The notes beneath the pieces are model-generated. The model worked only from the letters and a program-made list of their open reading frames with translations. It did not search any database and was not told the origin of the DNA. A DNA stretch of 32,000 nt from Megasphaera elsdenii DSM 20460. GTDB lineage: Bacteria > Bacillota > Negativicutes > Veillonellales > Megasphaeraceae. The DNA lies in NCBI RefSeq assembly GCF_003010495.1, contig NZ_CP027570.1, positions 1,470,001 through 1,502,000 of the forward strand. Reading direction: 5' to 3'. The position numbers were made by a program, and so were the translations under genes. The stretch's first letter is position 1; each line of letters begins with the position of its first letter. Shown piece after piece: positions 491 to 20,824 of the stretch.

Positions 491-516
491 AGAATAATCG
501 AAAGGAGGGAGCGTCA

Positions 517-639: not shown

Positions 640-656
640 TGTAAGGAGAGATTATT

Positions 657-776: not shown

Positions 777-802
777 TATATGTACTAATCATAGAAATAA
801 TG

Positions 803-846: not shown

Positions 847-879
847 CATATATTTTTGAAAAAGAGAAGGGAGAATAAT

Positions 880-1188: not shown

Positions 1189-1237
1189 TTAGGGCTGATG
1201 AAAAAAATGATATAATATAAATAGATGGCATGGTGAA

Positions 1238-1273
1238 GGTATTGGATAATATTGAAAAATATTATCCAATACC
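1238..1273 (+). terminator. perfect 16-bp stem / GAAA loop hairpin downstream of the ACP-like gene
   Basis: GGTATTGGATAATATT-GAAA-AATATTATCCAATACC, followed by TATTTGT. It could be a terminator or a protein-binding palindrome. Confidence 0.45.
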
Positions 1274-1347
1274 TATTTGTGATATTCGAATTTAATAGCG
1301 GGCCTTTATATTTATGATTTAGGTTTTCGAAGATGCTTTGCATGAGA

Positions 1348-1367
1348 TTCACAATAATTATTGTGAA
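1348..1367. promoter_or_regulatory. 20-bp perfect palindrome TTCACAATAATTATTGTGAA (possible operator)
   Basis: Read directly from the sequence. It lies about 75 bp upstream of the EcsC-like gene, at the AT-rich/GC-rich boundary. Confidence 0.35.
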
Positions 1368-1441
1368 TGACAGAATTTGTCGTCATCATCTGCTATGATA
1401 TAGGTAAAGGAAGAATTTAGATGTTAGGGTAAGGTGATATT

Positions 1442-2122
1442 ATGGATGTAACGGCTATGGGAAAAGCTTTGTCAATGTCTTATGATAAGGCCCTCAGCGG
1501 CATTGCCGGTATGAAGGGCGCCGAGGCGTTGGCGGCGGAATATATGGCGACTGGCGATGATTTGGAGAAACAGGTGGATATGTTGATCCGCAATCAGGTC
1601 ATCAAGTGCGGTGCATCTGGCTTTTTGACGAGTTTAGGCGGCGCTATTACGCTGCCCGTGGCTTTGCCGGCCAATGTCCTCAGTGTGCTGTATATGCAGC
1701 TTCAGATGATTGCGGCCATTGCTCATATGGGCGGCTATGATTTGCAGAGCGACCGCGTGCGGACGCTGGTCATCGCCTGTCTTTGCGGCAACCAGCTCAA
1801 GGAAGTCTTGAAACAGGCTGGCATCAAGGTGGGGACGACGTTGACGGCTAAGGCGATTCAACGGTTGTCGGCAGTACTCTTCAACCGCATTAATCGGACG
1901 GTTACGATGCGTTTGTTGTCGCGTTTCGGGACGAAGAGCGCCATTAATTTAGGGAAGGCCATTCCCCTCGTTGGCGGTCTGATTGGCGGCGGCTTCGATG
2001 CATATTCGACGCAGATCATCGGCGATAAGGCCAAAGAGATGTTCATTCTGGAAGCCCGGCATATGGAAAATGGGGAAGTGGCTGTCGAAGTTATCGATGT
2101 ATCACATGATGATGCGGATTAA
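1442..2122 (+). CDS. EcsC family protein
   Basis: The segment GFLTSLGGAITLPVALPANVLSVLYMQLQMIAAIAHMGGYD and the glycine-rich C-terminal part resemble EcsC-family proteins as I remember them. An SD precedes the ATG. Confidence 0.65.
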   Translation: MDVTAMGKALSMSYDKALSGIAGMKGAEALAAEYMATGDDLEKQVDMLIRNQVIKCGASGFLTSLGGAITLPVALPANVLSVLYMQLQMIAAIAHMGGYDLQSDRVRTLVIACLCGNQLKEVLKQAGIKVGTTLTAKAIQRLSAVLFNRINRTVTMRLLSRFGTKSAINLGKAIPLVGGLIGGGFDAYSTQIIGDKAKEMFILEARHMENGEVAVEVIDVSHDDAD

Positions 2123-2136
2123 GGAGGTCAGGTACG

Positions 2137-2343
2137 ATGGAACTCATGAATTTGAATCATCCCGCTTCACATAAGTGTGCTTTTTGTAAACACTGGTATG
2201 ACCCGATGAACCAGGCCATCCGGCCGAAGGCGCCGATTGTCGGTTTTTGGGAGTATGATCCGCTGGCTGAGAATCAGTGCATGGTGCGGAACATGAAGAC
2301 CCGGGGTGTGCAGTCGTGTAATCAGTTTGTCTGTAAGATTTGA
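2137..2343 (+). CDS. small Cys-rich hypothetical protein
   Basis: Strong SD (AAGGAGG) 8 nt upstream. It contains CAFCKHW plus three further Cys. It is tightly linked to the EcsC-like gene. Confidence 0.5.
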   Translation: MELMNLNHPASHKCAFCKHWYDPMNQAIRPKAPIVGFWEYDPLAENQCMVRNMKTRGVQSCNQFVCKI

Positions 2344-2365
2344 GGAAGGCGTGATGAGTTAAACG

Positions 2366-2728
2366 ATGGGGACGGCTACCGCTCATGGTGTTGCGTCGTT
2401 GATTAAAGAAGTTATTCTACGACCTTTATTCTATCTTTTGGGGCAGGCTTTATGGCCGTTTATTTATGGCCTTGGCGTCAATTTTTTGGCTGTCTATGAG
2501 ACGGGGTGGAACAGCGGCGATTGGCTTACGAGAGGCCTGCTGATTTTTATTACCCTTAGCTTTTTTGGGCTGCTCGTCGGTATTTTTGTCCCCAAGAAGG
2601 GGTCCCAGGAAAATCGGCATCGTGTCCGATGTGTGATGGTCAATGTGCTGTTATACGTACTGGTCCTTTATATTATCGCCCGGTGGTATGGATTAGCCCA
2701 GCCAATTACGATGACGATTACGATTTAA
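2366..2728 (+). CDS. hypothetical membrane protein
   Basis: About four hydrophobic helices and host-like codon usage. The SD is weak. Confidence 0.45.
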   Translation: MGTATAHGVASLIKEVILRPLFYLLGQALWPFIYGLGVNFLAVYETGWNSGDWLTRGLLIFITLSFFGLLVGIFVPKKGSQENRHRVRCVMVNVLLYVLVLYIIARWYGLAQPITMTITI

Positions 2729-2753
2729 AGCGGGGTAACCTCTCAGACCGCCG

Positions 2754-3764
2754 TTGGCGGCCAGCTCCCCTATGATGGGAGCCTTCTTGAAAGGATGTGT
2801 TTATTTGAAGGAAGATAAGGTTTCGCGGGTACTGGCGCTGTATTCGCAGCTTTTGGGCGGGCGGACGATTCAGAAGGCGGCGGCAGCCCAGCAGTATGGT
2901 GTGAATGAGCGCAGTATTCAGCGGGATATTGAGGATATCCGGGCTTTCTGCCGCAATGGCATGGCCCTTGGCGATGGAACGCCTTGTGATATTGTCTATG
3001 ATTATGTCGATAAGGGCTACCGCATGGAAGGCGGCCAGGCGCAGAAGTTGTCCAATAGTGAAATCTTGGCGTTGTGCAAGATTTTGCTCGACAGCCGGGC
3101 TTTTGTCAAGACCGGGATGGAAGCGATGTTGCACAAGGTGATTGCCTGCTGTGTACCGGCGTCGAATCAGGCCATGGTGACTCAACTGGTCAACAATGAG
3201 GCGTTCCATTATGTGGAACCGCGGCACCGGACGAGTTTCCTCGATACTATGTGGCACCTCGGTGAGGCCATTCAGCAGCACCGTTATGTCGATGTGGCTT
3301 ATGGTCGGCTGAAGGACCGGAAAATCGTTAAGCGGCGGCTGAAGCCCTTGGCCCTGCTCTTTTCGGAATACTATTTTTATCTCATCGCCTTCATCGACGA
3401 CAAGGATATCGAAAAAATCTATGAAAGCGCCCGGGATATTACGCCGACCATTTACCGCTTGGACCGCATCAAGACCTTGGAAGTGGAACAGGAGACGTTC
3501 CATATCCCTTATAACCGGCGTTTCCAGGAAGGCGAGTTCCGCAAGCGCGTCCAGTTCATGTATGGCGGTCGGCTGCAGCGTATCACGTTCACCTATACGG
3601 GCTACGACATCGACGCTATCCTGGACCGCCTGCCGACGGCGAAGATACTGAGTGAAGATAACGGGACGTACCAGCTGGAAGCAGAAGTCTACGGGAAGGG
3701 CATTGAAATGTGGCTGCGAAGCCAGGGGAAATACGTCAAAGACATTAAGATTGTGGAGTTATGA
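2754..3764 (+). CDS. WYL-domain transcriptional regulator (HTH + WYL + C-terminal extension)
   Basis: The N-terminal HTH (YGVNERSIQRDIEDIRAF) and the WYL-type core (YFYLIAFIDD...YRLDRI) are recognisable. The start is uncertain: ATG 2754 or 2772, or TTG 2805. Confidence 0.75.
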   Translation: MAASSPMMGAFLKGCVYLKEDKVSRVLALYSQLLGGRTIQKAAAAQQYGVNERSIQRDIEDIRAFCRNGMALGDGTPCDIVYDYVDKGYRMEGGQAQKLSNSEILALCKILLDSRAFVKTGMEAMLHKVIACCVPASNQAMVTQLVNNEAFHYVEPRHRTSFLDTMWHLGEAIQQHRYVDVAYGRLKDRKIVKRRLKPLALLFSEYYFYLIAFIDDKDIEKIYESARDITPTIYRLDRIKTLEVEQETFHIPYNRRFQEGEFRKRVQFMYGGRLQRITFTYTGYDIDAILDRLPTAKILSEDNGTYQLEAEVYGKGIEMWLRSQGKYVKDIKIVEL

Positions 3765-3866
3765 GCTCAAGGAGTCATGCATGGGGCAGAAACCCTCATG
3801 GGATGGCTCCTCTTTTTGTTTCCCGTGATTCTTGTTATAATGAAATAAAAGAAAGCAGGTGAGGCT

Positions 3867-5370
3867 ATGAAGTGGCAGATGCCGATCGGTGTCGATAATT
3901 TTTTTGATATACGGAGCAAGCATTATTATTTCGTCGATAAGACGGATTTCATCCGCCAGCTCATCGACGGGCACAGTGCGGTGACGCTGATTACGCGGCC
4001 CCGGCGGTTCGGCAAGACCTTGACGCTGAGTATGCTGGAGTATTTCTTTTCTATTGAAAAAGAGGCACAGAGCCGCCATCTCTTCGACGGCCTGGCTATT
4101 GACCGGGCCGGGGCGGATTACATGGCCCATCGCGGACAGTATCCGGTATTGTTCTTGTCCTTGAAGGATTTGAAGGACCTCACGTGGCCGCAGATGTTGC
4201 AATCCCTGAGTTCCTGGATCAGCTACTGGTTCATTGACCATGATTATTTAGCTGATAGTCCGTCTGTCAATCCGGACTTGCGCAGGCGCTTTCTGGCACT
4301 GAAACAGCAGGCTTCTGGGCAGAATGAAATGCAGCTGGCCCTGGCACTGTTGGTCAAGATGATGCATCAGCATTTTGGCAGGCCGGTCATTTTATTGATT
4401 GATGAATACGATGCGCCCATTCAGCAGGCTTGGGAACACGGCTTTTATACAGAGTGCATTGCTTTTATGAAACAGTTTTTGGGCAGCGTCCTGAAGGGCA
4501 ATCGCGACTTAGATTTTGCCGTACTGACAGGGGTCCTGCGGGTCGCCAAAGAAAGTATTTTCAGTGATCTGAATAATCTCGATGTCTGTTCCGTCATGGA
4601 TGCTGCCTATCGGGAGGTCCTTGGCTTTACGCCGCAGGAAGTGGCACAGATGGCGGAAGACCTGACCATGGCGGAGGCATTGCCCGACTTGAAGAAATGG
4701 TATGACGGCTATCTCTTTGGTGGGGCAGAGATTTATAATCCCTGGTCGATTATCAATTTTTTCCGTCACGGTGAGGTTGGTGACTATTGGGTCAATACGT
4801 CGGGCAATGGTATCATCCGGGAAATGCTGCGCCACGTGACCGCTGATACAGAAGGCGATTTGCTGGCGTTGTTGCAGGGCCGTCAGGTGACAGCCCTGAT
4901 TCGGGAAGGCGTCATTTATGAAGACATTGGCCGCGATACGGATGCGTTGTATACGATGCTGCTGACGACAGGCTATTTGACGGCTGTCAGCCGCAGACGA
5001 GGCATTGGCGGCATACGCTGTGAATTAGTGATTCCCAATCGGGAAGTTCAGGATATTTACCGCTTTGAAATCTTGGATAAGATGCGAGGCCGTTATTCTG
5101 TGTCCCGACTGGAAACCGAACCGGGAAAGCGGGTACGGCCGCTTTGACCTGGCCATTATTCCCAAGGATGTAGAGAAGGCCGGCGTCATCATGGAATTCA
5201 AGGTAGCTGCCAGTGAAGCGGACATGGCCGATAAGGCCAAGGAGGCGTTGCAGCAGATTGAAGAGCGGGAATACGTGACGGAATTTCGCCGGCGGGGAAT
5301 CCAGACGGTATGGAAATACGGAATCGCCTTTTGTGGGAAGAAGGTGGAAGTCGTCCGCGGCCAGTACTGA
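3867..5370 (+). pseudogene. AAA-ATPase-like / PD-(D/E)XK (PDDEXK_9-type) protein, frameshifted
   Basis: The N-terminal frame (3867-5147) has FVDKTDFI...RPRRFGKTL (Walker A-like). The nuclease motif GYGRFDL...IMEFK continues in the +1 frame (5065-5370). The two ORFs overlap by 83 nt. Confidence 0.7.
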
Positions 5371-5465
5371 ACGGTATAGGCGCAAGACTATAAAATTTGA
5401 ATATTCTATGATATAATTAATTGTTATGTGACCTGATGAAATACTTTGATACTGGAGGTATATGA

Positions 5466-6995
5466 ATGGCTACAGTTCAGGAAAAGATTGACCAGCTCCA
5501 TGAAAAGCTCGCGAAAATCGAGATGGGCGGCGGTCAGAAGCGAATTGATTCGCAACATAAAAAAGGTAAGATGACAGCCCGCGAACGGCTGGCTAAATTA
5601 TTTGATGAAGGCAGCTTTACGGAAATGGGGCAGTTCATTCATCATCGCTGCATGAATTTCAACATGCAGGAAAAGGAAATCCCCGGCGATGGCGTCGTTA
5701 CCGGCTACGGTACGGTCCGCGGCCGTCTGGTCTTCGCCTACGCCGAAGATTTTACCGTCGAAGGCGGTTCTCTTGGCGAAATGCATGCCCACAAAATTGC
5801 CCAGATGCAGGAAATGGCCCTGAAGATGGGGGCTCCCGTCATCGGCATCAATGATTCCGGCGGTGCCCGCATCCAGGAAGGCGTCGATGCCCTGTCCGGG
5901 TTTGGCCGCATCTTCATGAATAATACGGCTGCATCCGGCGTCATCCCGCAGATCGCCGTCATCATGGGGCCTTGTGCCGGCGGTGCTGTATACAGCCCGG
6001 CTCTGATGGATTTCGTCTTCATGGTCAAGAATACATCGGACATGTTCCTTACGGGCCCGGCCGTCATCAAGTCGGTCACGGCCGAAGAAGTAACGGCCGA
6101 AGAACTGGGCGGTGCCATGACGCACAGCTCCATTTCCGGCGTCGCTCACTTTGCCTGTGAAAATGAAGATGACTGCATCGAAAAAATCAAGGCCCTCCTC
6201 GATTTCCTGCCCAGCAACAACATGGAAGAAGCGCCGGTCATCGATTCCGATGATGATCCGAACCGTGAAGATGAAAGCCTCAATTCGGTCATTCCCGATA
6301 ACAGCAGCATGCCTTACGATATGCTCGACGTCATCAAATCCTGCGTCGACGACGGCAACGTATTCCAGGTATTGGAAAACTATGCCCTGAACATCATCAC
6401 CTGCTTTGCCCGCTTTGACGGCCAGACTGTCGGCATCATCGCCAACCAACCGAAGTTCCTCGCCGGCTGCCTGGATATCAATGCGTCCGACAAAGCAGCC
6501 CGTTTCATCCGCTTCTGCGACAGCTTTAATATCCCTGTCGTCACCTTCGTCGATGTACCGGGCTTCCTGCCTGGGACGACCCAGGAATACGGTGGTATCA
6601 TCCGCCACGGCGCCAAGATGCTCTATGCCTATTGTGAAGCGACCGTTCCCAAGATTACTGTCGTCACCCGCAAAGCATACGGCGGAGCCTATATCGCCAT
6701 GTGCTGCCGTCAGCTCGGTGCTGACATGGTCATGGCCTGGCCGTCGGCAGAAATCGCCGTCATGGGTCCCGATGGCGCAGCCAATATCATCTTCAAACAC
6801 GATCCGGAAAAGGAAAAGAAGAAACAGGAATATATCAATGAATTTTCGACGCCCTATAAAGCAGCCGAACACGGCCAGATCGATTGCGTCATCGAACCGA
6901 AGGAAACGCGTCCGCGCATCATCAGCGCCCTGGCTATGCTTTACAGCAAACGGGAAGAACGGCCGTCGAAGAAACACGGCAACATGCCGTTATAA
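5466..6995 (+). CDS. mmdA: methylmalonyl-CoA decarboxylase alpha subunit (carboxyltransferase)
   Basis: 509 aa. It matches my memory of V. parvula MmdA along its full length (MATVQEKI...KMTARERL...INDSGGARIQE...PKKHGNxPL). Confidence 0.93.
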   Translation: MATVQEKIDQLHEKLAKIEMGGGQKRIDSQHKKGKMTARERLAKLFDEGSFTEMGQFIHHRCMNFNMQEKEIPGDGVVTGYGTVRGRLVFAYAEDFTVEGGSLGEMHAHKIAQMQEMALKMGAPVIGINDSGGARIQEGVDALSGFGRIFMNNTAASGVIPQIAVIMGPCAGGAVYSPALMDFVFMVKNTSDMFLTGPAVIKSVTAEEVTAEELGGAMTHSSISGVAHFACENEDDCIEKIKALLDFLPSNNMEEAPVIDSDDDPNREDESLNSVIPDNSSMPYDMLDVIKSCVDDGNVFQVLENYALNIITCFARFDGQTVGIIANQPKFLAGCLDINASDKAARFIRFCDSFNIPVVTFVDVPGFLPGTTQEYGGIIRHGAKMLYAYCEATVPKITVVTRKAYGGAYIAMCCRQLGADMVMAWPSAEIAVMGPDGAANIIFKHDPEKEKKKQEYINEFSTPYKAAEHGQIDCVIEPKETRPRIISALAMLYSKREERPSKKHGNMPL

Positions 6996-7007
6996 GGAGG
7001 CTGCCGT

Positions 7008-7493
7008 ATGATAGAAATTCAATTTGCCGTCATCGTCCTGCTGATTGCTATGACCTTGATTTTGAGCCGGTACTATAATACCCGCTTTCGTGCCTTGGAA
7101 GACAAGATGAAGGACGTCGCCGATTTTCAGCAGAGCGTCAAAGACCTGGCAGAAGCCGTCCAGGACTTGAAGGAAGCTGTAAAATCTGAAAAGACGGTCC
7201 AGCCGCAACCGACACAACCGGAAAAACAGGAACTGACCCACCCCGTCGTCCCTGTCGGCCAGCGTCAGCCGGCTGTCGTAGCGGCCCGGCCGATGACCGT
7301 CGTATCAGACGGGAACCAGGCCGTTCCGGAAGGGGAGCTTTCGGATGAAGTCGTCGCCGTCATCATGGCTGCTGTTGCCGCCTATGGCTATTCACCGGCA
7401 GCTATCCGCTCTATCCGTCCGCAGAAGCGCGGTTATAAACGCCATCGGGAAAATTGGGCTATGGCAGCCCGCCTGGGTGGCATGAGTCGTTAA
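7008..7493 (+). CDS. mmdD: OadG-like small membrane subunit (decarboxylase delta/gamma-type)
   Basis: It has an N-terminal TM helix and a C-terminal VVAVIMAAVAAY...IRSIR motif typical of the OadG family. A strong SD is present, and it lies between mmdA and the biotin carrier gene. Confidence 0.65.
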   Translation: MIEIQFAVIVLLIAMTLILSRYYNTRFRALEDKMKDVADFQQSVKDLAEAVQDLKEAVKSEKTVQPQPTQPEKQELTHPVVPVGQRQPAVVAARPMTVVSDGNQAVPEGELSDEVVAVIMAAVAAYGYSPAAIRSIRPQKRGYKRHRENWAMAARLGGMSR

Positions 7494-7528
7494 CTGAAAA
7501 CGTATTTAGATCCAGGAGGACAAGATAT

Positions 7529-7936
7529 ATGAAAAAATTCAAGATTACTGTCAATGGCAAAGCGTATGAAGTAGAAGTCGAAGAAATGGGCGGCACTCCG
7601 GTGGCAGCTCCCGCACCGGCTCCGGCTGCACCGGCACCCGCTCCGGCAGCTCCCGCACCAGCTCCGGCTGCACCGGCATCTACACCGGCTCCCGCTGTAG
7701 GCGGCCCGATTCCTGATGGCGCCATTACGGTCAAAGCCCCCATGCCGGGCAAGATTTCGGCTCTTAAAGCCGAAGCTGGCAAAGCCGTCAAACGAGGCGA
7801 CATCATCCTCGTCTTGGAAGCCATGAAGATGCAGAACGACATCACAGCCACTGCTGACGGCACGCTCCACGAAATCCGCGTCAATCCCGGCGATAACGTA
7901 AAGACCGGCGACGTACTGGCCGTCATCGTGAAATAA
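7529..7936 (+). CDS. mmdC: biotin carboxyl carrier subunit of methylmalonyl-CoA decarboxylase
   Basis: Starts MKKFKITVNGKAYEVEVEE, followed by an Ala/Pro linker and the biotinyl-lysine motif EAMKMQN. ATG 7529 follows the SD AGGAGGA. Confidence 0.9.
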   Translation: MKKFKITVNGKAYEVEVEEMGGTPVAAPAPAPAAPAPAPAAPAPAPAAPASTPAPAVGGPIPDGAITVKAPMPGKISALKAEAGKAVKRGDIILVLEAMKMQNDITATADGTLHEIRVNPGDNVKTGDVLAVIVK

Positions 7937-7963
7937 GATTATATTTTAAACGATAGTGGATAG

Positions 7964-8014
7964 AAAAGCCCGGTAACTTATGCTGTACGTTACGCATAAG
8001 TTACCGGGCTTTTT
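7964..8014 (+). terminator. rho-independent terminator of the mmd operon
   Basis: 20-bp stem AAAAGCCCGGTAACTTATGC / GCATAAGTTACCGGGCTTTT followed by a T-run. Confidence 0.8.
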
Positions 8015-8105
8015 CTGAACAGGTTATACCTGAATCTCGCAGCGGGACGCCTTATCAGGACGTCCTCTACCACTAAAAACTACAAACTGCAAACTTAAAA
8101 CTCAA

Positions 8106-8138
8106 AAGGGCTTGTCGTCGTGCGACAAGCCCTTTTTT
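8106..8138. terminator. bidirectional hairpin terminator next to the tRNA fragment
   Basis: AAGGGCTTGTCG / CGACAAGCCCTT, with a T-run after the stem on both strands. On the minus strand it lies immediately downstream of the tRNA 3' end. Confidence 0.6.
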
Positions 8139-8142
8139 GCTA

Positions 8143-8189
8143 TGGTGGACCATCAGGGGATCGAACCCTGGACACCCTGATTAAGAGTC
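8143..8189 (-). other. 3' fragment of tRNA-Lys(CTT), from anticodon loop to CCA; probable prophage attL core
   Basis: The minus strand reads GACTCTTAATCAGG-GTGTC-CAGGGTTCGATCCCCTG-ATGGTCC-A-CCA: anticodon loop with CTT, variable loop, T-arm, acceptor 3' strand. No matching 5' acceptor strand (GGACCAT) or D-arm is present further upstream. Confidence 0.75.
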
Positions 8190-8311
8190 TTCAATTTTGA
8201 TTGGCAAGAATGGCTTATTTACGCCATTTTCGACCGTGGGGCATAGACAGAAAGACGCGGTAGAGCGCAGTAAAACGGAGTAAAACTGTAGGCGCGGGGT
8301 CAAGACGGGGG

Positions 8312-9388
8312 TCAGATGAGGTCACGGAGTTTGTCGACGACGCTGCTTTCCATAGCCGGCGTGATGTGGCTGTATGTGTCCATAGTCTGGGCAAAGGTGG
8401 CATGTCCCAGGCGGTATTGGATGACTTTGAAGTGGACGCCGGCTTTGACCAGGAGCGTCGCATGGGTATGACGGAGGGTATGGAAAGAGAAAGCTTCCGG
8501 CATCCCTGCCTTGCGGCCGTAAGCTTTCGTGCGGCGGGAAATGTATTTCGGATCATACGGCCGCCCATCGGGCCGGGCAAAGAGCAAGTTATTGTTTTCG
8601 TAGTTTAGGGCCGCCAGGCGCTCTTTGAAGATTATTTTTTCCTGCTTCCGGATGACGGCCAGCGTCTGATCATCAATGGAGATCGTCCGATGAGATGATT
8701 TATTTTTCGTCGTCTGGCTGATTACGACGCTTCCACCGACATTAAGGACCGTTTGATTGACCGTGAGCGTCTTATTTTTTACGTCAATGTCGCTGATGCG
8801 GAGGCCCAGCAGTTCGGACCGGCGCAGGCCTGTATAGAGGGCGACCCAGTACAGGTTGTGGTGCTTTGGATTCGGGACGGACGCCAAAAAGCGGGCCGCT
8901 TCGTCCTTGGTCAATGCCAGCACTTTGTCATGGGTTACAGCCGGAAGCTTGACGCCGCGGAGCGGATACGTCGGGATGATGCCGTCATTGACGGCCTGGC
9001 GCAGTCCGATTCGGACCACGGCTATCGCATATTGTACCGTGCGATTACTGTATCCCTGGGAGAGCAGGGAGGCAATCAGGTCGCGGAACATGTACGGCTG
9101 TAGCTCAATCAATTTTACCTTAGCCAGCATCGGCAGTACGTAGCGGCGCAGCTGAAAGACGTAAGAATCAAATGTATCCTCTGCCAGCGTCGACCTGGCG
9201 CCTCGTAGCCAGATAGATAGCCATTGACCTAAGGTGATATTATAATCGACGTTGGGAGCGGCGTGGAGTGCATTTTTGAATTGGTCGCGACGCTGTTCCG
9301 CTTCCTTGATGGTTCGGCCGTAAAAATAATGACGCTTGCCGTCGATGGTCAGAGAGACTTTGTAGCGGCCATCAGGTCTTTTTTTCAT
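8312..9388 (-). CDS. int: tyrosine recombinase / phage integrase
   Basis: The C-terminal catalytic region has HTLRHTHATLL...LGH...Y. The N-terminal SAM-like domain starts MKKRPDGRYKVSLTIDGKRHYFYG. I chose the start at 9388 (SD AAAGGA) because the longer ORF overlaps the next gene. Confidence 0.9.
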   Translation of the reverse strand: MKKRPDGRYKVSLTIDGKRHYFYGRTIKEAEQRRDQFKNALHAAPNVDYNITLGQWLSIWLRGARSTLAEDTFDSYVFQLRRYVLPMLAKVKLIELQPYMFRDLIASLLSQGYSNRTVQYAIAVVRIGLRQAVNDGIIPTYPLRGVKLPAVTHDKVLALTKDEAARFLASVPNPKHHNLYWVALYTGLRRSELLGLRISDIDVKNKTLTVNQTVLNVGGSVVISQTTKNKSSHRTISIDDQTLAVIRKQEKIIFKERLAALNYENNNLLFARPDGRPYDPKYISRRTKAYGRKAGMPEAFSFHTLRHTHATLLVKAGVHFKVIQYRLGHATFAQTMDTYSHITPAMESSVVDKLRDLI

Positions 9389-9431
9389 GTGGATTAATCC
9401 TTTCAAGTACAGAAGATAATTCAAAGGCTTT

Positions 9432-9647
9432 TCACGGCTTACATACGCCGCAAGGTACATATCCTTCGGCAAGAGCTTCATCACGGGAGTCGATGGGGAC
9501 AAAATTTTCAGGATGCTTGATGGTACGGCAGTCGGTATAGTGGAATTTCATGGAACGGGGATTGCCCAGGTAGTCGGCGGCAAAGGCTGTACCGACTGAG
9601 GACAATACGCAGATCATAGCCAGGACCAGGGGAAGTTTCTTAATCAT
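9432..9647 (-). CDS. small secreted protein with Ada-like zinc-ribbon motif
   Basis: Signal peptide (KKLPLVLAMICVLSSVGTAFA/AD) followed by KFHYTDC...EALAEGYVPCGVCKP (H/C...C..C.P pattern). Confidence 0.6.
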   Translation of the reverse strand: MIKKLPLVLAMICVLSSVGTAFAADYLGNPRSMKFHYTDCRTIKHPENFVPIDSRDEALAEGYVPCGVCKP

Positions 9648-9664
9648 AGGATTCATCCTTTCTT

Positions 9665-10498
9665 TTATTTTTTCTTCAGCTGATTTTTTCTTTCGTGTTC
9701 AATCTGCTTGATGCTTTTATCAGGAGTAGGGAGATCTTCTGGCATGGTTCCGCCTAATTCTTTGATTGTATTCCTAACGGCTTTCCCAACCATATAATGT
9801 GTTTTATTCGCCTTTTCCTTTCCATGGATTTTATCACGGCGAAGCTTTTCATCTGTTTGAGTAGCGCGAAATAAATTGGCAGCTAACTCTGTACTACCCA
9901 TATGATCCAGGATTTTTTGTGACTTTTTTAGTCCTTTACGGGCATGGATTTCTTTTTGACCTAATCCACCATAGAGGCCTTGGTAACCTTTATTTTGGAA
10001 AATAGCAAAATCGCGCGGTGTTTCTACACCTGACTGCTGAGCGGCTTCAACCAATGATTTATTATGTTCAATCAGATCACCGCGGATAGTCAGCCTTTTT
10101 TGATCTTCCGTCATATTGTCAAAGTCGTCCATGATTTCCTGCTGGCGAGTCTTCACAGCAAAATAAGTCTGAGCTAACGCAATGGCTTTTTTTCGTGAAT
10201 CTCCATTCATTGCGATTAAATAACATGCGTATCGGGATAAATGATAATCCTCCAAAGCACGTTGCGCCCCGCTGCCGATATTAACCATTCCGTGCACCTG
10301 CACGAAATGGTCAGAAACCTCATTATTACTAGCTTTGCAAGCGTCTATTGCTTTTAAAATTACTTTTTTAAAAAAGCGATATTCATTATAACCTAACACT
10401 TGAATAAGCTCTCTAGCAATCCAGTATTCCTGACCGTATTCATTGATATGTTTAATATTTTCAAAAAGAGATTCATTAATATTTTCTAGACTATTCAT
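9665..10498 (-). CDS. dinD: DNA damage-inducible protein D homologue
   Basis: Long stretches match my memory of E. coli DinD (LSRYACYL, FAIFQNxGYQGLYGGL, KGLKKxQKILDHMGSTELAANLFRATQT, ELGGTMPExLPTP). Confidence 0.85.
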   Translation of the reverse strand: MNSLENINESLFENIKHINEYGQEYWIARELIQVLGYNEYRFFKKVILKAIDACKASNNEVSDHFVQVHGMVNIGSGAQRALEDYHLSRYACYLIAMNGDSRKKAIALAQTYFAVKTRQQEIMDDFDNMTEDQKRLTIRGDLIEHNKSLVEAAQQSGVETPRDFAIFQNKGYQGLYGGLGQKEIHARKGLKKSQKILDHMGSTELAANLFRATQTDEKLRRDKIHGKEKANKTHYMVGKAVRNTIKELGGTMPEDLPTPDKSIKQIEHERKNQLKKK

Positions 10499-10712
10499 CG
10501 AAAAGACTCCTTTCTAAAACTTCCGCCTTATCTTCATCTCCGTGCCAATGATTTATACTGAAATTAAAATAGTTTGAGTTCGTTCATAAATGTCCTCCAT
10601 GAAAAAAATAAATTTTTAAAATTCCGAATATCTTTTGCATATCTGTTAAAAACGCCATGGATTTCGCAAGATAAATCATTTTCGTCGATATCTTGTGAAT
10701 ATTGATTGTCCT

Positions 10713-11267
10713 TTATTTAAGCAATTTAGCTTTGGCTGCCTGGAACTCTTCGTCTGTAAGCATATTGGCTTTCTTCAAATTAGCCAATCTTTCCAGCTGA
10801 GAGATTAAATCTTCTGAATCTAAAGCTGGACTTGATGCAGGGGCTGAAGTCGGGGACGTTGACATGGATTGTTTTTGTTTAAAGGCGTCCCAGGCGGAAT
10901 GGATGCTTTCATAGAGGGGCGTGATATATTGCTTGACCATCTTTTTGACCACCATTGCAGATCCGGATGTCGTAAAGAGTAATTCACCAAATACTAATCC
11001 AGTTTCATACTCAATGGAACTTAGCTTATCATAACCGATTTCATGCACCTTTAGGCCATAAATTAGCCCCTTATCAACTAATATGACTCGCTGATCAGTA
11101 ACAACCAATAAACAATAACTGGATTCGAGCATTCCGGTAGCCGCATTTTTTATTTGTTCATTTTCGCGCAAAATATGGGGTAATTCTTTTACTTCTTTTC
11201 GCTTAGCCGCCTGACTATCAGTACTGACGTCATTGATGATTTCTTTTAATTCTTCATAGGAATACAT
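10713..11267 (-). CDS. bacterial PH (YokE-like) domain + C-terminal SHOCT domain protein
   Basis: LLVVTDQRVILVDKG...IEY resembles the bPH fold. The C-terminal LISQLERLANLKKANMLTDEEFQAAKAKLL resembles the SHOCT motif. Confidence 0.65.
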   Translation of the reverse strand: MYSYEELKEIINDVSTDSQAAKRKEVKELPHILRENEQIKNAATGMLESSYCLLVVTDQRVILVDKGLIYGLKVHEIGYDKLSSIEYETGLVFGELLFTTSGSAMVVKKMVKQYITPLYESIHSAWDAFKQKQSMSTSPTSAPASSPALDSEDLISQLERLANLKKANMLTDEEFQAAKAKLLK

Positions 11268-11323
11268 ATTACAATAACCTCCTTTGAACGGATTTATTCA
11301 TAATATATCGAGATTAAACGAAT

Positions 11324-11351
11324 CCCGCCTCTATTATGTGTAGAAGGCGGG
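11324..11351. terminator. hairpin between the DUF4041-like and PH/SHOCT genes
   Basis: CCCGCCT...AGGCGGG stem. The T-run is clear on the plus strand and weaker on the minus strand. Confidence 0.4.
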
Positions 11352-11371
11352 TTTTGTTGTTGCGGCTCTTT

Positions 11372-12802
11372 TTAAGATGCCGATTGAGCTATGTTTAGTG
11401 TTTCACGATATTCTTCCGCCTTGGGGACTTCTACGAAGGTTACGGCCTTATCATACTTTTCCTTAACAAGGTTTTCGATTTCTGACAATTTTACTTTGAA
11501 AAACTCTTTTCGATGATTTACTTTATTGACTTCCATGTCCCTGAAATGCTGATGAAGCAAAGATTCCAATGCAGGAGCATCATCAGAAAAGATGAGAGCA
11601 TGAACATCGAATTCAAAAGGAACAGAAGCGCTGCTCAACTCTTTGATACGATCCATTGGTTCCAGCCGACGTGTCATGCCGATTTTATAAACATCTTCAC
11701 CAAATGAACCTATATTTGAAATGATGTATACATAGCCAGCTTTGGCATTGGCTTCGCGTTGCGCAAGACTTTCTTTTTCTTGAGTAAGTTTTTCTAATTT
11801 CTCATTCAATTCCTTAATTTTATCCAGGTATAATTGCTTTTCTGCGTCCATGGAACTTTTTTGTAAATATTTCATAGTGCGTTCGATTTCATGCTTAAAT
11901 TGAGCTTCATCCTTTTCAATCTTCTTTTTAGCCATTTCCATTTCATGACGTACTTTTTCTTCTTCACGAAGTTGTTCTTTTCTGACTTGGAAAAGTTCTT
12001 TTTCTTCTTGTAATTTTTTTTGATATTCGTACAAACAGCTCATCCGTTCAAGTTTTATTTTAAGAAAAGCCTTGGTTAATTGGACGTTATCAATGGAAAA
12101 AAGTTTATTATGAGCTTCAAAAGATCGGATAATTTTCTGACGAATTGAATCAATATTACGAACGGTTACATTACCAATAAGATTATCTGTTTCCGTATTG
12201 AAACTGCGCAATAATTGATTTTTTTGTTTTCTCAGGTATGATTTAGTGTGTTCATTGGCGCTGCCAGTAAAAATGATGGCCCCATCATTTTTTTGCAAAT
12301 CTTTTTCCTCAGCTGAAAATAAAGATAATTTATTTTTTATTTCATCAGAAGATATTTGATCATAAAGAGTAGAATCTATTTCAGAAGTAACCAATGCGTT
12401 ATCCACTGCATTACAGACCGCATCAAGAGCTTGTTGTTCTTTTTTTGATTCAGCAGCAAGGCGATGAGATAAGTCTTCATATCTTTTTTTCAAAGAAAAT
12501 TCTTTCTTTTTATAATCATTTTCCAATTCCTTATACTGGTTGTTATAATCAGCGACACGTTGAGAATATTCTTCTTGAAGGTCTATTAAATGTTGTTGTT
12601 CAGATGATATTTTTTCCCGTATATCACCTAATTGAATTAATTCAGTCATTTCAATACTACGATATTTTTTATGACGCAAATAAACAAGAACCAATGCAAT
12701 AATTAAAGGAATTCCATATGCGAGTGAAAAAGCGCTTAGAATAACCATAAATAAAGGACTGAAATAAAGAGGCGCTTCTTTAAAATTGGTAGGTAATTTC
12801 AT
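11372..12802 (-). CDS. membrane-anchored coiled-coil protein with DUF4041-like region and C-terminal T5orf172/MUG113 (GIY-YIG-like) domain
   Basis: N-terminal TM helix, about 300 aa of K/E-rich heptad-like sequence, and a C-terminal GYVYIISN...VYKIGMTRR...EFF motif. It starts 36 bp after the cI stop on the same strand and has its own SD. Confidence 0.7.
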   Translation of the reverse strand: MKLPTNFKEAPLYFSPLFMVILSAFSLAYGIPLIIALVLVYLRHKKYRSIEMTELIQLGDIREKISSEQQHLIDLQEEYSQRVADYNNQYKELENDYKKKEFSLKKRYEDLSHRLAAESKKEQQALDAVCNAVDNALVTSEIDSTLYDQISSDEIKNKLSLFSAEEKDLQKNDGAIIFTGSANEHTKSYLRKQKNQLLRSFNTETDNLIGNVTVRNIDSIRQKIIRSFEAHNKLFSIDNVQLTKAFLKIKLERMSCLYEYQKKLQEEKELFQVRKEQLREEEKVRHEMEMAKKKIEKDEAQFKHEIERTMKYLQKSSMDAEKQLYLDKIKELNEKLEKLTQEKESLAQREANAKAGYVYIISNIGSFGEDVYKIGMTRRLEPMDRIKELSSASVPFEFDVHALIFSDDAPALESLLHQHFRDMEVNKVNHRKEFFKVKLSEIENLVKEKYDKAVTFVEVPKAEEYRETLNIAQSAS

Positions 12803-12838
12803 TGATTACATCTCCCTTGTGTTTATATTTATTGTATT

Positions 12839-13453
12839 TTAAAACTTACGCCGCATTTCTACCACCTTGCCAATAATCTGAATGGGGAGCGATTCAATGT
12901 CGTGGTTGGAGTAGAAGTGGGGCGTATATACGGCGACATTATGACCGATGAGTGTGATGCCAGCAGGACTTTCTTTTATCTCTTTGACAGTGGCATCATT
13001 TCCATTTATGAGAACAATGGCAATATCTCCAGAATCTACGGTTGGCTGTCTTTTGACGATGACGATGTCGCCGTTGCGCAAAGTGGGTTCCATTGAGTCA
13101 CCCTTAACTTGCAGTGCGAAGAAATCGCCTGTTGCGGCGAGTTCCGGGCTAATTTCTTCGTAGTCTAATATTTCTTCGACAGCATCTATGGGGATGCCAG
13201 CCACGACGCGCCCTAGAACAGGGATTCGGACACCTTTTTTATTTCTAGGTTGAGTAGTAACTCCTTTTAGCAAATAGTCCGTTGTGACATGAAAAAAATC
13301 AGCTAGTGCGACAGCTTCGTCATCCCTCAAAGGCCGTTTACCCAGTTCAATTCTATTAAGGACGATACGATTCATACCTATAGCGGCCGCGACTTCTTTT
13401 TGTTGTAAGTTTTGCTCTTTTCTTAGCTTTGTAATTCTTTGCCCAGATGTCAT
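12839..13453 (-). CDS. cI: CI/LexA-like phage repressor (XRE HTH + S24 peptidase)
   Basis: HTH (LQQKEVAAAIGMNRIVLNRIELGKR), linker, and S24 motifs (VPVLGRVVAG, GDSMEP, K in VKR). ATG 13453 lies 6 nt after AGGTG. Confidence 0.9.
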   Translation of the reverse strand: MTSGQRITKLRKEQNLQQKEVAAAIGMNRIVLNRIELGKRPLRDDEAVALADFFHVTTDYLLKGVTTQPRNKKGVRIPVLGRVVAGIPIDAVEEILDYEEISPELAATGDFFALQVKGDSMEPTLRNGDIVIVKRQPTVDSGDIAIVLINGNDATVKEIKESPAGITLIGHNVAVYTPHFYSNHDIESLPIQIIGKVVEMRRKF

Positions 13454-13494
13454 ATTTATCACCTCTCAATATTTACAATTTGTAACTTAGTTCA

Positions 13495-13523
13495 ATTATA
13501 GTAGTTACAAATTGTAAAATCAA
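13495..13523 (-). promoter_or_regulatory. leftward (repressor) promoter: -35 TTGATT, 17 nt, -10 TATAAT
   Basis: Read on the minus strand. Operator O2 fills the spacer. Confidence 0.6.
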
Positions 13524-13551
13524 TTAAAGTTATAATTTATAACTAAACATA

Positions 13552-13580
13552 TTGACAAGTTACATTTTGTAAATTATAAT
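13552..13580 (+). promoter_or_regulatory. rightward early promoter: consensus -35 TTGACA, 17 nt, -10 TATAAT
   Basis: Both hexamers are perfect consensus. Operator O3 occupies the spacer. Confidence 0.75.
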
Positions 13581-13628
13581 GACGATATAGGAAGTTACAA
13601 AACGTAACTATCATAAGGAGGTGATACA

Positions 13629-13829
13629 ATGCCAAAGGTTAATCTAAAGTTTATCAAAAAGAGAAGATTAGAACTTCATATTACACAAGCTCAAATGGCT
13701 AAAGCATTAGGACTCAGTTCATCTTCTGGGTATAATCATTACGAAAATGGCAATCGCCGCTTTACTGCTGATTTTATGCCAATAATGGCAAAAATACTTA
13801 AGTGTAGCATAGAAGAATTATATACTTAA
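13629..13829 (+). CDS. cro: Cro-like XRE-family HTH protein
   Basis: 66 aa with HTH (ITQAQMAKALGLSSSSGYNHYENG), divergent from cI. SD AAGGAGGTG. Confidence 0.8.
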   Translation: MPKVNLKFIKKRRLELHITQAQMAKALGLSSSSGYNHYENGNRRFTADFMPIMAKILKCSIEELYT

Positions 13830-16766: not shown

Positions 16767-16960
16767 TGGACCCGTGTCCGCTATGCGGCCAGCCGACGCA
16801 CAGTTGGATCTATTGCCGCAAATATAAAAGGGACATCTGCCAGGACCACTGCGAAGATTGCCCGTGGTTCATGGGGAAGATGTTATGGAGTTGCCGCTAT
16901 TCAGAGAGGAAGAAACCACATGAAAATCGCTATTTACAACCTAAAGGGGGGCGTCGGTAA
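16766..16960 (+). CDS. small Cys-rich (zinc-finger-like) protein
   Basis: MDPCPLCGQPTH...CQDHCEDCPW. Its ATG overlaps the preceding stop, and its 3' end overlaps parA by 41 nt. Confidence 0.4.
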   Translation: MDPCPLCGQPTHSWIYCRKYKRDICQDHCEDCPWFMGKMLWSCRYSERKKPHENRYLQPKGGRR

Positions 16961-17663
16961 GACGGTAACGACGGCGAACCTGGCCCACCTTTATGCCACA
17001 CAACGAACGCGTCACGTGCCTGGCAGTCATCGCGGCCAGGCACCGCAAGTACTCATGATTGACTGCGACCCGCAAGGAAATCTGACACAGTTCTACAAAC
17101 GGTACGACCAGTCAGCTCCGTGCGGGATGCGGGAAAAAGAAATCATCGGCACGGACTGGCCGTTTCTGTCGCTCATGCCGGGAAATATGGATTTGTATGA
17201 ATTGGAACGCAGTTATTACGAAAGCAAGACCGTCGATGCTCTGGCCGACATCGGCAGCGGATATGATATTGTCCTTATCGACTGCCCGCCAGCACTGAAC
17301 ATGCTGACCATTAACGCGCTGAGCATTGCGGACTTTATCGTCATCCCAGTGCGGCTGGACGCCTTTTCCAGCCAGGGGCTGGTGGAACTCGACACACAGC
17401 TTCAGGACGTCCTGCAAATCAATCCGGCTCTCCAACTGTTGGGCGTGCTCATCACGCATGACGAACGGACGACGCTGAGCGATGAAGCGGAAGGACTGCT
17501 AAGAGCCAGCTTCCCTGTCTTCGATACGAAAATCAGCCGGAGCCGCTGGATCATCGACAGTACATTGATGTGCAAGCCGCTGGCCGAACTCGGTATGACA
17601 CTCAAACCAGCATGGCAATATAGAAAATTAGCCAATGAAATCATAAAGAAGGTGAAAGAATGA
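16920..17663 (+). CDS. parA: ParA/Soj-family partition ATPase
   Basis: Deviant Walker A IAIYNLKGGVGKT, followed by IDCDPQGN and VLIDCPP. Confidence 0.9.
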   Translation: MKIAIYNLKGGVGKTVTTANLAHLYATQRTRHVPGSHRGQAPQVLMIDCDPQGNLTQFYKRYDQSAPCGMREKEIIGTDWPFLSLMPGNMDLYELERSYYESKTVDALADIGSGYDIVLIDCPPALNMLTINALSIADFIVIPVRLDAFSSQGLVELDTQLQDVLQINPALQLLGVLITHDERTTLSDEAEGLLRASFPVFDTKISRSRWIIDSTLMCKPLAELGMTLKPAWQYRKLANEIIKKVKE

Positions 17664-18754
17664 GCTTAATGGAAAACATGGGCCTCGTCAACAAGGACAA
17701 GGACCGAACTATTAAACAGATTCCGGTCAATCTGCTCGTAGAGAATCCAGATAACTTCTATATCGTCGGCGATGTAGAAGAATTAAAGAACTCGATTATC
17801 GCCGCCGGCGGCGTCCGTCAGAATTTGATTGTCGAACCGATGAAAGACGGACGGTACCTGATTGTATCCGGGCATCGCCGGTGCAAGGCCGTCAAAGAGC
17901 TGCTGAAAGAGCAGACTGTGGGGATTCCCGATACCGTACCTTGCGAAATCTCTACGGACCATTACGGAAATCAACTGCTGCTTATCGATACGAACAGTAC
18001 GTCCCGGGACTTGACTGCCTGGGAACGGGTCGAGCAGTATAAACAGCTCAACAGCCTGTTCAAATACGGCGTCATGACGAATCAAATCAACGGCCGAAAG
18101 CGCGACGCGATTGCCAAAACACTGCATGAGAGCACGACCAATATTGCAAGATATTCAGCCATTTCCAACAACCTGAGGAAATATTACGCAGATTGGATGA
18201 AATCGGGAAAACTTGGCATTTCGGCGGCCTATGAATTATCTAAATTAACGCCGGACCGGCAGAAAGATTTCTATGAACAGCACCTGGATGACGATGAAAT
18301 TACCCTGAAATCTATCGAGGACTTCCTCCATCCGGCATCAAAAGAAACGCCGATTCAGGAAGCGGCTGTACAAGAAGAAGCCATGCAGGCAGAAAGACCG
18401 GAAACAGACGAAGAAGATCCGGAAGCTATTTCCACCGATGATGAAGCGGAAGACATCGAAGAAGTCCCAGAAGAAGCGCCAACAAAAAATGAACCCACCA
18501 CACGGGTAGAAGACATGGAACTGCCAAAAGAATACAAGAAGCTACAAAAAGAATACAAAAAGGCCATGAGCAATATTATGGTTAAACATCGGTGTATAAA
18601 AGACTATGCAGAGCTGGCAAAGAACGGTACGTACACCCAGATGCAGATGATAACCAACATGCAGCGGGCCGCCAGCGGTATGTGTAAGCAGTTGGACTAC
18701 CTGCTGGAGCTGGTTGATAAGATGAAGGTGGTGAGAGGACATGCAGAAAAGTAA
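17660..18754 (+). CDS. parB: ParB N-terminal-domain protein with acidic linker
   Basis: ParB/Srx-type box LIVSGHRRCKAV. It is translationally coupled to parA. Confidence 0.8.
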   Translation: MSLMENMGLVNKDKDRTIKQIPVNLLVENPDNFYIVGDVEELKNSIIAAGGVRQNLIVEPMKDGRYLIVSGHRRCKAVKELLKEQTVGIPDTVPCEISTDHYGNQLLLIDTNSTSRDLTAWERVEQYKQLNSLFKYGVMTNQINGRKRDAIAKTLHESTTNIARYSAISNNLRKYYADWMKSGKLGISAAYELSKLTPDRQKDFYEQHLDDDEITLKSIEDFLHPASKETPIQEAAVQEEAMQAERPETDEEDPEAISTDDEAEDIEEVPEEAPTKNEPTTRVEDMELPKEYKKLQKEYKKAMSNIMVKHRCIKDYAELAKNGTYTQMQMITNMQRAASGMCKQLDYLLELVDKMKVVRGHAEK

Positions 18755-19911: not shown

Positions 19912-19928
19912 ATGGGCCACAGGCCCAT
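19912..19928. promoter_or_regulatory. 7-bp inverted repeat ATGGGCC-ACA-GGCCCAT next to an AT-rich tract, upstream of rep
   Basis: Read directly from the sequence. It is a candidate nick-site hairpin or origin element. Confidence 0.3.
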
Positions 19929-19981
19929 TGGGGCTTGTAGTAGGCGTTATATTTAGTGCCACCTGGAAAGGAAGTGAGACC

Positions 19982-20824
19982 ATGGGGTTTGTTCGTAATG
20001 TGAAATATTTCTGCGGAAAAAGATATTTTGAAACGGATTTGTTTGAAGTTCCCGATATGGGGAAACGTGGAAAGAAGATGAGAGAAAAGAAAGTCAACCT
20101 GTCTTCGCCGGATCAAGTACGCCGAAATAAAAAGAAGGCATTGCGGACATTCTGCCAGAAAGTAAAAACGAATTTCACGGGAGACGATGTTTATTTGACA
20201 TTGACCTATGACACGCTTCACCGTCGGGACAACGTGAAGGATGCCAAGAAAGACTTCCACAATTTCATCAAGCGCGTGAATCGTCGGCGTAAAAAAGCGG
20301 GGCTTCCCTCGGCAAAGTATATGGGGGCCATCGAACGAAAGGGAACGAATATTCATTTTCACATGATCATCAGCGGGGGCCTGGACCGCAATGAGCTGGA
20401 AGATGTTTGGGGCAATGGCCTGAGCAATGCCAGCCGGTTGCGGATAGACGATGAAGAGTTGATGCAGCGGCTCTGTCAATACATCATGAAGGAAGCCCGC
20501 GATAAGGAGAAGTTCGAAAACGCATATATTTGTTCACGGAATCTGGAAAATCCGAAAGTCACGAAAACAGACTGGGCTTTTACGCACCGCAAGCTGGAAG
20601 AACTGGCCGGGCAGACCGACTGCCGTGACGTATGGGAGAAATTATATCCTGGCTATGAATTCATCGAAGCCAGCAGTACGTTCAATGAATTGACGGGCTG
20701 GCATATCACGGTAAAAATGACGAGGAGGGATAGCGACGTATATTGCAAAAACAAAAAGAGTACGCCTCCGGGGAGTCAAACTAAAACGGCTCAACGACAG
20801 CGTACACGAAAGAGACGGGTATAA
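19982..20824 (+). CDS. rep: HUH-superfamily rolling-circle replication initiator
   Basis: HUH motif NIHFHMII and a downstream Tyr motif LCQYIMKE (YxxK). The N-terminal YFCGKRYFE...LTLTY is typical of a Firmicutes RCR Rep family as I recall it. Confidence 0.8.
   Translation: MGFVRNVKYFCGKRYFETDLFEVPDMGKRGKKMREKKVNLSSPDQVRRNKKKALRTFCQKVKTNFTGDDVYLTLTYDTLHRRDNVKDAKKDFHNFIKRVNRRRKKAGLPSAKYMGAIERKGTNIHFHMIISGGLDRNELEDVWGNGLSNASRLRIDDEELMQRLCQYIMKEARDKEKFENAYICSRNLENPKVTKTDWAFTHRKLEELAGQTDCRDVWEKLYPGYEFIEASSTFNELTGWHITVKMTRRDSDVYCKNKKSTPPGSQTKTAQRQRTRKRRV

Follow-up and report, generated by a model that had tools for sequence, protein, structure and literature searches.

The nuclease SNIPE was recovered as PD-lambda-1 in a functional selection in Escherichia coli and validated there as a single gene (Vassallo et al. 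2022, PMC9519451); the name SNIPE came later, as did the elucidation of its mechanism (Saxton et al. 2026, PMC13190303). The protein spans the inner membrane once, with its N-terminus in the periplasm; its DUF4041 domain aids binding to DNA and is the probable contact with the phage tape measure protein, and its GIY-YIG nuclease, with the catalytic residue E414, cleaves phage DNA during injection (PMC13190303). The defence is direct and non-abortive and leaves prophage induction unaffected; when the membrane helix is removed, the nuclease attacks the chromosome (PMC13190303). A membrane anchor lies within the first 70 residues in 66% of the published homologues, and some of those without a membrane helix have N-terminal PH or DUF4428 domains (PMC13190303). 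PD-Lambda-1 is also active as a single gene in a Gram-positive host, Streptococcus thermophilus (bioRxiv 10.1101/2024.10.22.618286). A second exclusion locus is orf2/3 of phage TP901-1, whose sequence matches the two-component exclusion system SieF7/2AB at 100% identity (Ruiz-Cruz et al. 2020, PMC7693887; for SieF7/2AB, McGrath et al. 2002, as cited in PMC7693887); with cloned orf2/3, two skunaviruses plaqued less well, and phages P087 and WRP3 were blocked (PMC7693887). Here we analysed 32,000 nucleotides (nt) of Megasphaera elsdenii DSM 20460 (NZ_CP027570.1, positions 1,470,001 to 1,502,000; the window), which carry an integrated prophage of this strain. Its cI-type repressor is followed by genes for a SNIPE homologue and for a protein with a bPH_3 and a SHOCT domain (PH-SHOCT). 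Probably the region between cI and the integrase is a cargo slot with three separately exchangeable, AT-rich genes, for SNIPE, a separate PH-SHOCT exclusion factor and a DinD-like protein. The original prediction had treated the SNIPE and PH-SHOCT pair as not known to be experimentally validated, yet earlier work exists on both families (PMC9519451, PMC13190303, bioRxiv 10.1101/2024.10.22.618286, PMC7693887).

Judged by its profile matches, the 476-amino-acid (476-aa) product of the first gene is a full-length SNIPE/PD-lambda-1 homologue and a new member of that family. A PADLOC scan, which the original prediction had named as a check, identified it as PD-Lambda-1 (model PDLC03976, expectation value (E) 9e-117), with aa 51-474 aligned to profile positions 49-475 of 491, and it matched phrog_1847 with E 1e-131. 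The gene and its parts are as follows.

11372 to 12802, minus strand: SNIPE/PD-lambda-1 homologue, 476 aa, with its ATG at 12802; CCC73292/WP_014016026.1, deposited as 'DUF4041 domain-containing protein'
12677 to 12754, minus strand: N-terminal transmembrane segment of SNIPE, aa 17-42, with a Kyte-Doolittle 19-residue maximum of 2.36
12053 to 12217, minus strand: DUF4041 domain of SNIPE, aa 196-250, Pfam PF13250 with E 4.7e-19
11462 to 11737, minus strand: T5orf172/MUG113 nuclease domain (GIY-YIG-type), aa 356-447, with Pfam matches over aa 356-448 (E 4e-19 and 1e-19)
11564 to 11566, minus strand: codon of E413, which aligns with the catalytic E414 of E. coli SNIPE

The hydrophobic segment is directly followed by RHKKYR, and an AlphaFold2 model of the protein (predicted local distance difference test score, pLDDT, 79) has helices at aa 16-28 and 31-46 and long helices thereafter, including the stretch of aa 51-350, about 38% of whose residues are charged. 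Hydropathy, AlphaFold2 and Pfam agree with the architecture read earlier from the letters (an N-terminal transmembrane helix, a charged helical stretch, DUF4041 and a C-terminal T5orf172/MUG113 domain), and the membrane-tethered nuclease suggested on that basis is the published arrangement of the SNIPE family. At least 7,998 proteins are SNIPE homologues at E <= 1e-10; DUF4041 was present in all 120 of those listed, and T5orf172 as well in most of them. In the gene tables of homologue loci, PF13250 itself carries the family label 'SNIPE'. No NCBIfam model matched the 476-aa protein or the 184-aa PH-SHOCT protein, and those supplementary files of the SNIPE paper that we searched for Megasphaera, WP_014016026 and KEA32402 gave no match.

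Residues were numbered by reference to the PD-lambda-1 annotated in E. coli phage PhiR26_1, which is usable for this purpose because it has every residue of the published mutants (E223, N250, L253, W257, E264, K305, I308, T319 and E414). E. coli SNIPE and the Megasphaera protein share the order of N-terminal membrane helix, long helices, DUF4041, helix and GIY-YIG/T5orf172 nuclease; both are single-gene systems, and the catalytic glutamate is kept (E414, here E413), being invariant in alignments of 9 and of 41 SNIPE homologues. They differ in that identity to the PhiR26_1 protein is 34% overall, with an N-terminal third unrelated in sequence, and in that the host here is a diderm Firmicute of the class Negativicutes rather than E. 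coli. At two of the mutated positions the residue is another one: E223 corresponds to R221 in the window, the same charge change as in the defence-enhancing mutation E223K, and W257 corresponds to S255. The genes also lie in different places, the PhiR26_1 one several genes away from cro, on the far side of the O/P replication genes and ren, and the window one directly after the repressor.

RexAB is a two-protein abortive-infection system. Lambda rexAB and the window SNIPE gene are alike in lying directly downstream of cI on the same strand, a placement that suggests expression in the lysogen and phage exclusion. The likeness is one of position: neither the SNIPE nor the PH-SHOCT protein had a RexA or RexB match in the PADLOC and Pfam scans, and SNIPE is a single protein with direct, non-abortive defence, in contrast to the abortive RexAB. 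The abortive-infection assays proposed with the original prediction would suit rexAB and not SNIPE. The rex-like position as such is real and recurrent, and the earlier statement of it held for both genes, which lie in the lysogeny module downstream of cI on the same strand, a location that recurs widely in both families. The relevant features at the repressor are these.

12839 to 13462, minus strand: cI-type repressor, 207 aa, Pfam HTH_3 E 1e-12 and Peptidase_S24 E 7e-26
12803 to 12838, minus strand: gap of 36 bp from the cI stop to the SNIPE start, with a AAGGGAGA Shine-Dalgarno inside, as read from the sequence
13473 to 13607, no strand assigned: cI-cro intergenic control region with four TTACAAWWTGTAA palindromes and divergent promoter-like sites
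13629 to 13829: divergent cro-like gene

In the four closest homologue groups that we looked up (98, 72, 66 and 60% identity), SNIPE starts 17-62 bp after an HTH/S24 repressor, and the cargo downstream varies (Bro-N, Fic, RhuM, Abi_2 further on, or DUF3862/BLIP). We also examined a diverse set of 80 SNIPE loci, one genome per species. The open reading frame (ORF) immediately upstream matched HTH_3 in 21 of 69 cases, Peptidase_S24 in 12/69 and Peptidase_M78 in 12/69 (these family counts may overlap); the ORF immediately downstream encoded a tyrosine integrase in 15/73 cases and a serine recombinase in 5/73, and integrases apart, no partner family recurred there. Streptococcus pneumoniae prophage EJ-1 has the order cI, ORF3 (DUF4041), ORF2, int, which is the same order of cI, SNIPE and int; EJ-1 ORF3 and proteins of S. 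pyogenes Javan prophages are SNIPE homologues with 41-43% identity over 96-98% of their length. They are annotated only as hypothetical or DUF4041 proteins, and the small ORF2 downstream in EJ-1 differs from the window's downstream gene. Since SNIPE in Firmicutes very often follows a prophage repressor and often precedes the integrase, the nuclease would in nature often be the prophage's superinfection-exclusion gene. A term search of the main text of PMC9519451 and PMC13190303 found no statement of this repressor-adjacent habit.

The sequence and a motif scan agree with what had been claimed of the junction itself: the SNIPE gene lies 36 bp past the cI stop on the same strand, has its own Shine-Dalgarno, and the scan saw no terminator-like site and no minus-strand promoter-like site in the gap. 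As SNIPE follows the repressor recurrently, co-transcription with cI is a reasonable inference from sequence and conserved adjacency, most likely from the maintenance promoter. Candidate promoters lie in the control region, where a perfect TTGACA-17-TATAAT occupies 13552-13580 on the plus strand and TTGATT-17-TATAAT occupies 13523-13495 on the minus strand. These divergent hexamers are overlapped by the TTACAAWWTGTAA palindromes, which account for seven strand-wise matches at four sites between cI and cro, against 0.19 expected, and which are likely operators. SNIPE would then be made in the lysogen and seated in the inner membrane, where it would cut the DNA of superinfecting tailed phages at entry, during injection; the chromosome and the resident prophage would be spared, the latter because it is already inside the cell.

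The second gene encodes a protein whose PH and SHOCT domains had both been recognized before; both were found, although the PH domain proved to be bPH_3 and not bPH_2.

10713 to 11267, minus strand: bPH_3 and SHOCT protein, 184 aa, CCC73291/WP_014016025.1; Pfam bPH_3 E 9e-16 and SHOCT E 9e-7
10902 to 11171, minus strand: PH domain of the 184-aa protein, aa 33-122
10719 to 10799, minus strand: SHOCT domain of the 184-aa protein, aa 157-183

In its AlphaFold2 model (pLDDT 85), seven strands form a PH sandwich capped by a helix, a disordered linker and two SHOCT helices follow, and the best Foldseek matches of the model were the solved bacterial PH domains 3dcx and 3hsa. In a BLASTP alignment it was 29% identical to TP901-1 ORF2 over aa 23-184 (162 aa, E 2e-22). 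The two proteins share the bPH_3 and SHOCT architecture, similar lengths (181 aa for ORF2, 184 aa here) and a gene position between repressor and integrase. From this match, the 184-aa protein is a homologue, and a new member, of the exclusion-associated TP901-1 ORF2 family. The gene orders differ in detail, cI, ORF3 (M78-like), ORF2, int in TP901-1 versus cI, SNIPE, PH-SHOCT, DinD, the 74-aa ORF, int in the window, so that the M78-like metalloprotease ORF3 that partners ORF2 has SNIPE as its counterpart in the upstream place. The Sie component has been described as membrane-associated (PMC7693887), and the SHOCT domain has been predicted to act as a protein anchor at the inner membrane leaflet (PMC11237479); neither the 184-aa protein nor TP901-1 ORF2 has a predicted membrane helix.

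Relatives of this protein are widely distributed. A tblastn search of deposited phages returned 44 records, with 28 from Staphylococcus, six from Lactococcus, four from Streptococcus and single ones from Blautia, Lactobacillus, Moraxella and Salmonella. In all three records that we inspected (TP901-1, phiMR25 and Montmirail) the gene is part of the lysogeny module; phiMR25 has the order regulator, metalloprotease, orf3, orf2, int, and in Blautia phage Montmirail the relative occupies the equivalent region next to the integrase. A scan of IMG/VR yielded 79 loci with PH-SHOCT relatives, in 50 of which the gene was directly flanked by a P2/186-type CI on its upstream side and an integrase on its downstream side (Phage_CI_repr plus Phage_CI_C, e.g. 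L118, L125, L141, L156 and about 46 more within L113-L185). The gaps around the gene in the tabulated loci are short, typically 7-16 nt upstream and 2-3 nt downstream. One IMG/VR relative was 98% identical to a gene of Salmonella phage S.Kent 1-2-1. The bPH_3-SHOCT gene is a conserved lysogenic operon gene that is widespread from P2/186-like to TP901-1 phages, and distant homologues were also found outside prophages. In the Megasphaera lysogen, PH-SHOCT would most likely be a second, independent, membrane-proximal superinfection-exclusion factor; exclusion at DNA entry is our best guess for its mode of action, with an accessory role in lysogeny as the main rival.

Whether SNIPE and PH-SHOCT form one unit, as the original prediction had it, was addressed by comparing loci, for which two further features are needed.

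10685 to 11276, minus strand: cassette of ~590 bp with the PH-SHOCT gene alone, a clean insertion/deletion relative to sibling prophages
about 11324 to 11351, minus strand: hairpin after the SNIPE stop, CCCGCCU...AGGCGGG, with the U-poor tail AUUCGUUU

Under a two-gene reading, PH-SHOCT would regulate the nuclease or act as a membrane or phage-sensing adaptor. The genes are indeed adjacent on the same strand in the window, in the homologous locus L018 and in three IMG/VR contigs, and the fused N-terminal PH or DUF4428 domains of helix-less SNIPE homologues (PMC13190303) would fit such a role. So would two arrangements in the diverse SNIPE set, where a SHOCT-tailed neighbour of another kind occurred in 3/80 loci: a 319-aa PH-like plus SHOCT protein (L100:3672-4628) precedes a SNIPE without membrane helix (4710-6002), and 210-aa zinc-ribbon (weak DUF4428) plus SHOCT proteins start 5 nt downstream of SNIPE (L067:1474-2103 and L068:5966-6595). 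In two sibling prophages (L001 and L004), however, a SNIPE 98% identical to that of the window stands behind a matching repressor without PH-SHOCT, and DNA alignment of the window with these loci showed near-identical flanks from which just the ~590-bp cassette is missing. Conversely, other sibling prophages have PH-SHOCT copies of 98% and 81% identity downstream of cI and of a ~190-aa lipoprotein that fills the SNIPE slot, and the DNA homology of the window to one of them (L010) begins at the PH-SHOCT ribosome-binding site. At the scale of the families, a bPH domain was found in none of the 73 immediate downstream neighbours of diverse SNIPE genes, a custom PH-SHOCT hidden Markov model (HMM) detected no full relative in the 80 SNIPE loci, and SNIPE lay within 4 kb of PH-SHOCT in three of the 79 IMG/VR loci, all three with PH-SHOCT proteins 91-100% identical to that of the window and from the same Megasphaera lineage. 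Run on 79 SNIPE ORFs, the same custom HMM returned only coiled-coil noise and no fused PH domain. Neighbourhood analysis, as proposed with the original prediction, recovered recurrent repressor and integrase neighbours for SNIPE, and little co-occurrence of the pair (0/73 and 3/79). Add to this the hairpin between the genes, the activity of SNIPE on its own in E. coli and S. thermophilus, and the membrane helix of the window SNIPE, which makes a membrane adaptor unnecessary, and a single two-gene system becomes improbable; the comparison shows that SNIPE and PH-SHOCT are modularly independent. A SNIPE pseudogene was considered for L018 and rejected, since what looks like a split gene there is a stretch of N in the scaffold.

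The lipoprotein of the alternative slot (lipobox LAVVSIGGC or LTGC; L010:4398-4964 and L014:4364-4951, also in L109-L111) had no family match in Pfam, PHROGs or PADLOC. Its two versions are 25% identical to each other, and it may be an exclusion lipoprotein.

Two other readings concern the function of the individual proteins. PH-SHOCT might be a lysogeny accessory, serving repressor or integrase function or prophage maintenance, and not an exclusion factor. Its place between a P2/186-type CI and the integrase in 50/79 viral loci agrees with this, as do the short gaps, which point to an operon-like, possibly translationally coupled arrangement, and the fact that, between two groups of Megasphaera prophages, PH-SHOCT is better conserved (81%) than the adjacent lipoprotein (25%). 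We nevertheless consider such a role unlikely, for TP901-1 orf2/3, cloned outside its prophage context, makes cells resistant to heterologous phages, sibling prophages lack PH-SHOCT altogether, and distant homologues reside in non-prophage contexts. As to the 476-aa protein, some phage records name its homologues 'chromosome segregation ATPase' or 'helicase', and T5orf172 was first described as a DNA-binding domain, which might indicate a phage life-cycle protein such as a DNA-binding or segregation factor in place of a defence nuclease. This is very improbable: the protein matches the validated PD-lambda-1 family over its full length with the catalytic glutamate kept, a Pfam scan found no ATPase or helicase domain, and the gene is AT-rich cargo, present or absent among sibling prophages.

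Several observations weigh against the favoured reading of a cargo slot with an active SNIPE and a separate exclusion factor. Foldseek of the full-length SNIPE model against the PDB returned coiled-coil noise, with Slx1 as the best GIY-YIG match (E 1.3), and a profile of 41 SNIPE homologues gave nothing significant against PDB sequences; the basis of the GIY-YIG assignment is therefore the Pfam families together with the published analysis. In S. thermophilus, two PD-Lambda-1 proteins sharing 98.5% identity were completely different in activity (bioRxiv 10.1101/2024.10.22.618286), so homology is no guarantee of protection, and anti-phage activity of the Megasphaera protein is to be read as a prediction from its family. 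TP901-1 ORF2 was tried solely together with the M78-like ORF3 (PMC7693887), and no Peptidase_M78 match was found among the seven lysogeny-module proteins scanned, from integrase to cro; the 184-aa protein is therefore filed as a homologue of the ORF2 component and not as a SieF7/2AB system. Finally, the hairpin between SNIPE and PH-SHOCT could end transcription ahead of the latter, and a promoter of its own for PH-SHOCT was rejected, there being no minus-strand promoter-like site between 11267 and 11372.

The hairpin had been noticed before. The 118-nt segment 11268-11385 folds with -29.2 kcal/mol (z = -3.8 vs shuffles), and L001 and L004 keep the structure, with a single G-C pair changed to G-U. 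Because the tail (AUUCGUUU) is poor in U, the hairpin can be no more than a weak intrinsic terminator, and PH-SHOCT would most likely be expressed by read-through.

A broader proposal, which we consider unlikely, is that PH-SHOCT proteins are a general and so far unrecognized class of lysogen-expressed, membrane-proximal proteins acting at the site of phage DNA entry, and that in some lineages they serve as SNIPE adaptors. It is suggested by the separate SHOCT-tailed genes that adjoin SNIPE in Megasphaera, L100, L067 and L068, by the fused PH or DUF4428 domains of the published helix-less SNIPE homologues, and by the location of the family between CI and integrase in P2/186-like, TP901-1, staphylococcal phiMR25-like and Megasphaera prophages.

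The remainder of the window fits an integrated prophage. Four proteins encoded in the window, the 476-aa and 184-aa ones included, are exact matches to NCBI records of M. elsdenii. Positions 1-8200 are host genes, including a methylmalonyl-CoA carboxyltransferase subunit and a biotin carrier, and on the minus strand the order is integrase, 74-aa ORF, DinD-like gene, PH-SHOCT, the 476-aa SNIPE gene and the HTH_3 plus S24 repressor. To the right of the cro-like gene follow ParA/ParB, a Rep protein, the large terminase, a lambda-type portal, a ClpP-type protease and the major capsid protein.

8312 to 9502, minus strand: tyrosine integrase at the prophage end, Pfam Phage_integrase E 2e-28, with host genes to the left and phage structural genes to the right
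9432 to 9656, minus strand: 74-aa ORF with a signal-peptide-like N-terminus, a C-terminal cysteine motif and a weak Ada_Zn_binding match
9665 to 10498, minus strand: DinD-like (Bro-N) protein, 277 aa, NCBIfam DinD equivalog E 2.5e-126 and PADLOC candidate PDC-S13 E 2e-120

The listed TTG start of the integrase probably lies too far upstream, since the ORF read from it runs into the 74-aa ORF (9432-9656); a 71-aa ORF occupies the place equivalent to the latter in L001, L010, L011 and L018. The SNIPE and PH-SHOCT genes are AT-rich, as had been stated, with GC contents of 0.33 and 0.40 compared with 0.50 for the remaining prophage and 0.52 for the host flank. The DinD-like gene (DNA damage-inducible protein D; GC 0.38) is likewise AT-rich cargo and was found in several sibling prophages; a literature search for PDC-S13 found no papers. 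Upstream of it, a seven-codon ORF, MNELKLF-stop (10564-10587, minus strand), has its own GGAGGA ribosome-binding site and resembles an N-terminal Bro-N stub; its counterpart in L001 is ~20 codons long. The ParA/ParB pair (16920-18754, plus strand) and a rolling-circle-type replication protein, REP_ORF2-G2P (19928-20824, plus strand), hint at a plasmid-like maintenance option for the prophage. In the host flank, the initial stretch (1-1500) is AT-rich (GC 0.33), with a strong GC skew at 1001-1500, and a WYL-domain protein adjoins an AAA-ATPase_like protein at 2754-5147 on the plus strand. A megablast search of the region against the phage collection gave a single weak match of 144 bp.

Taken together, what was presumed to be a novel two-gene defence module is better described as two separate genes, each of an experimentally supported family. 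In the SNIPE family, Firmicute homologues would often serve as superinfection-exclusion genes of prophages. Among sibling Megasphaera prophages, some have SNIPE and others a lipoprotein at this place, which suggests a slot specialized for blocks to phage entry. The bPH_3-SHOCT family, being widespread in lysogeny modules from P2/186-like to TP901-1 phages, merits direct study. If it were true that PH-SHOCT acts as a SNIPE adaptor, the window would encode a two-layer entry block whose layers physically interact.

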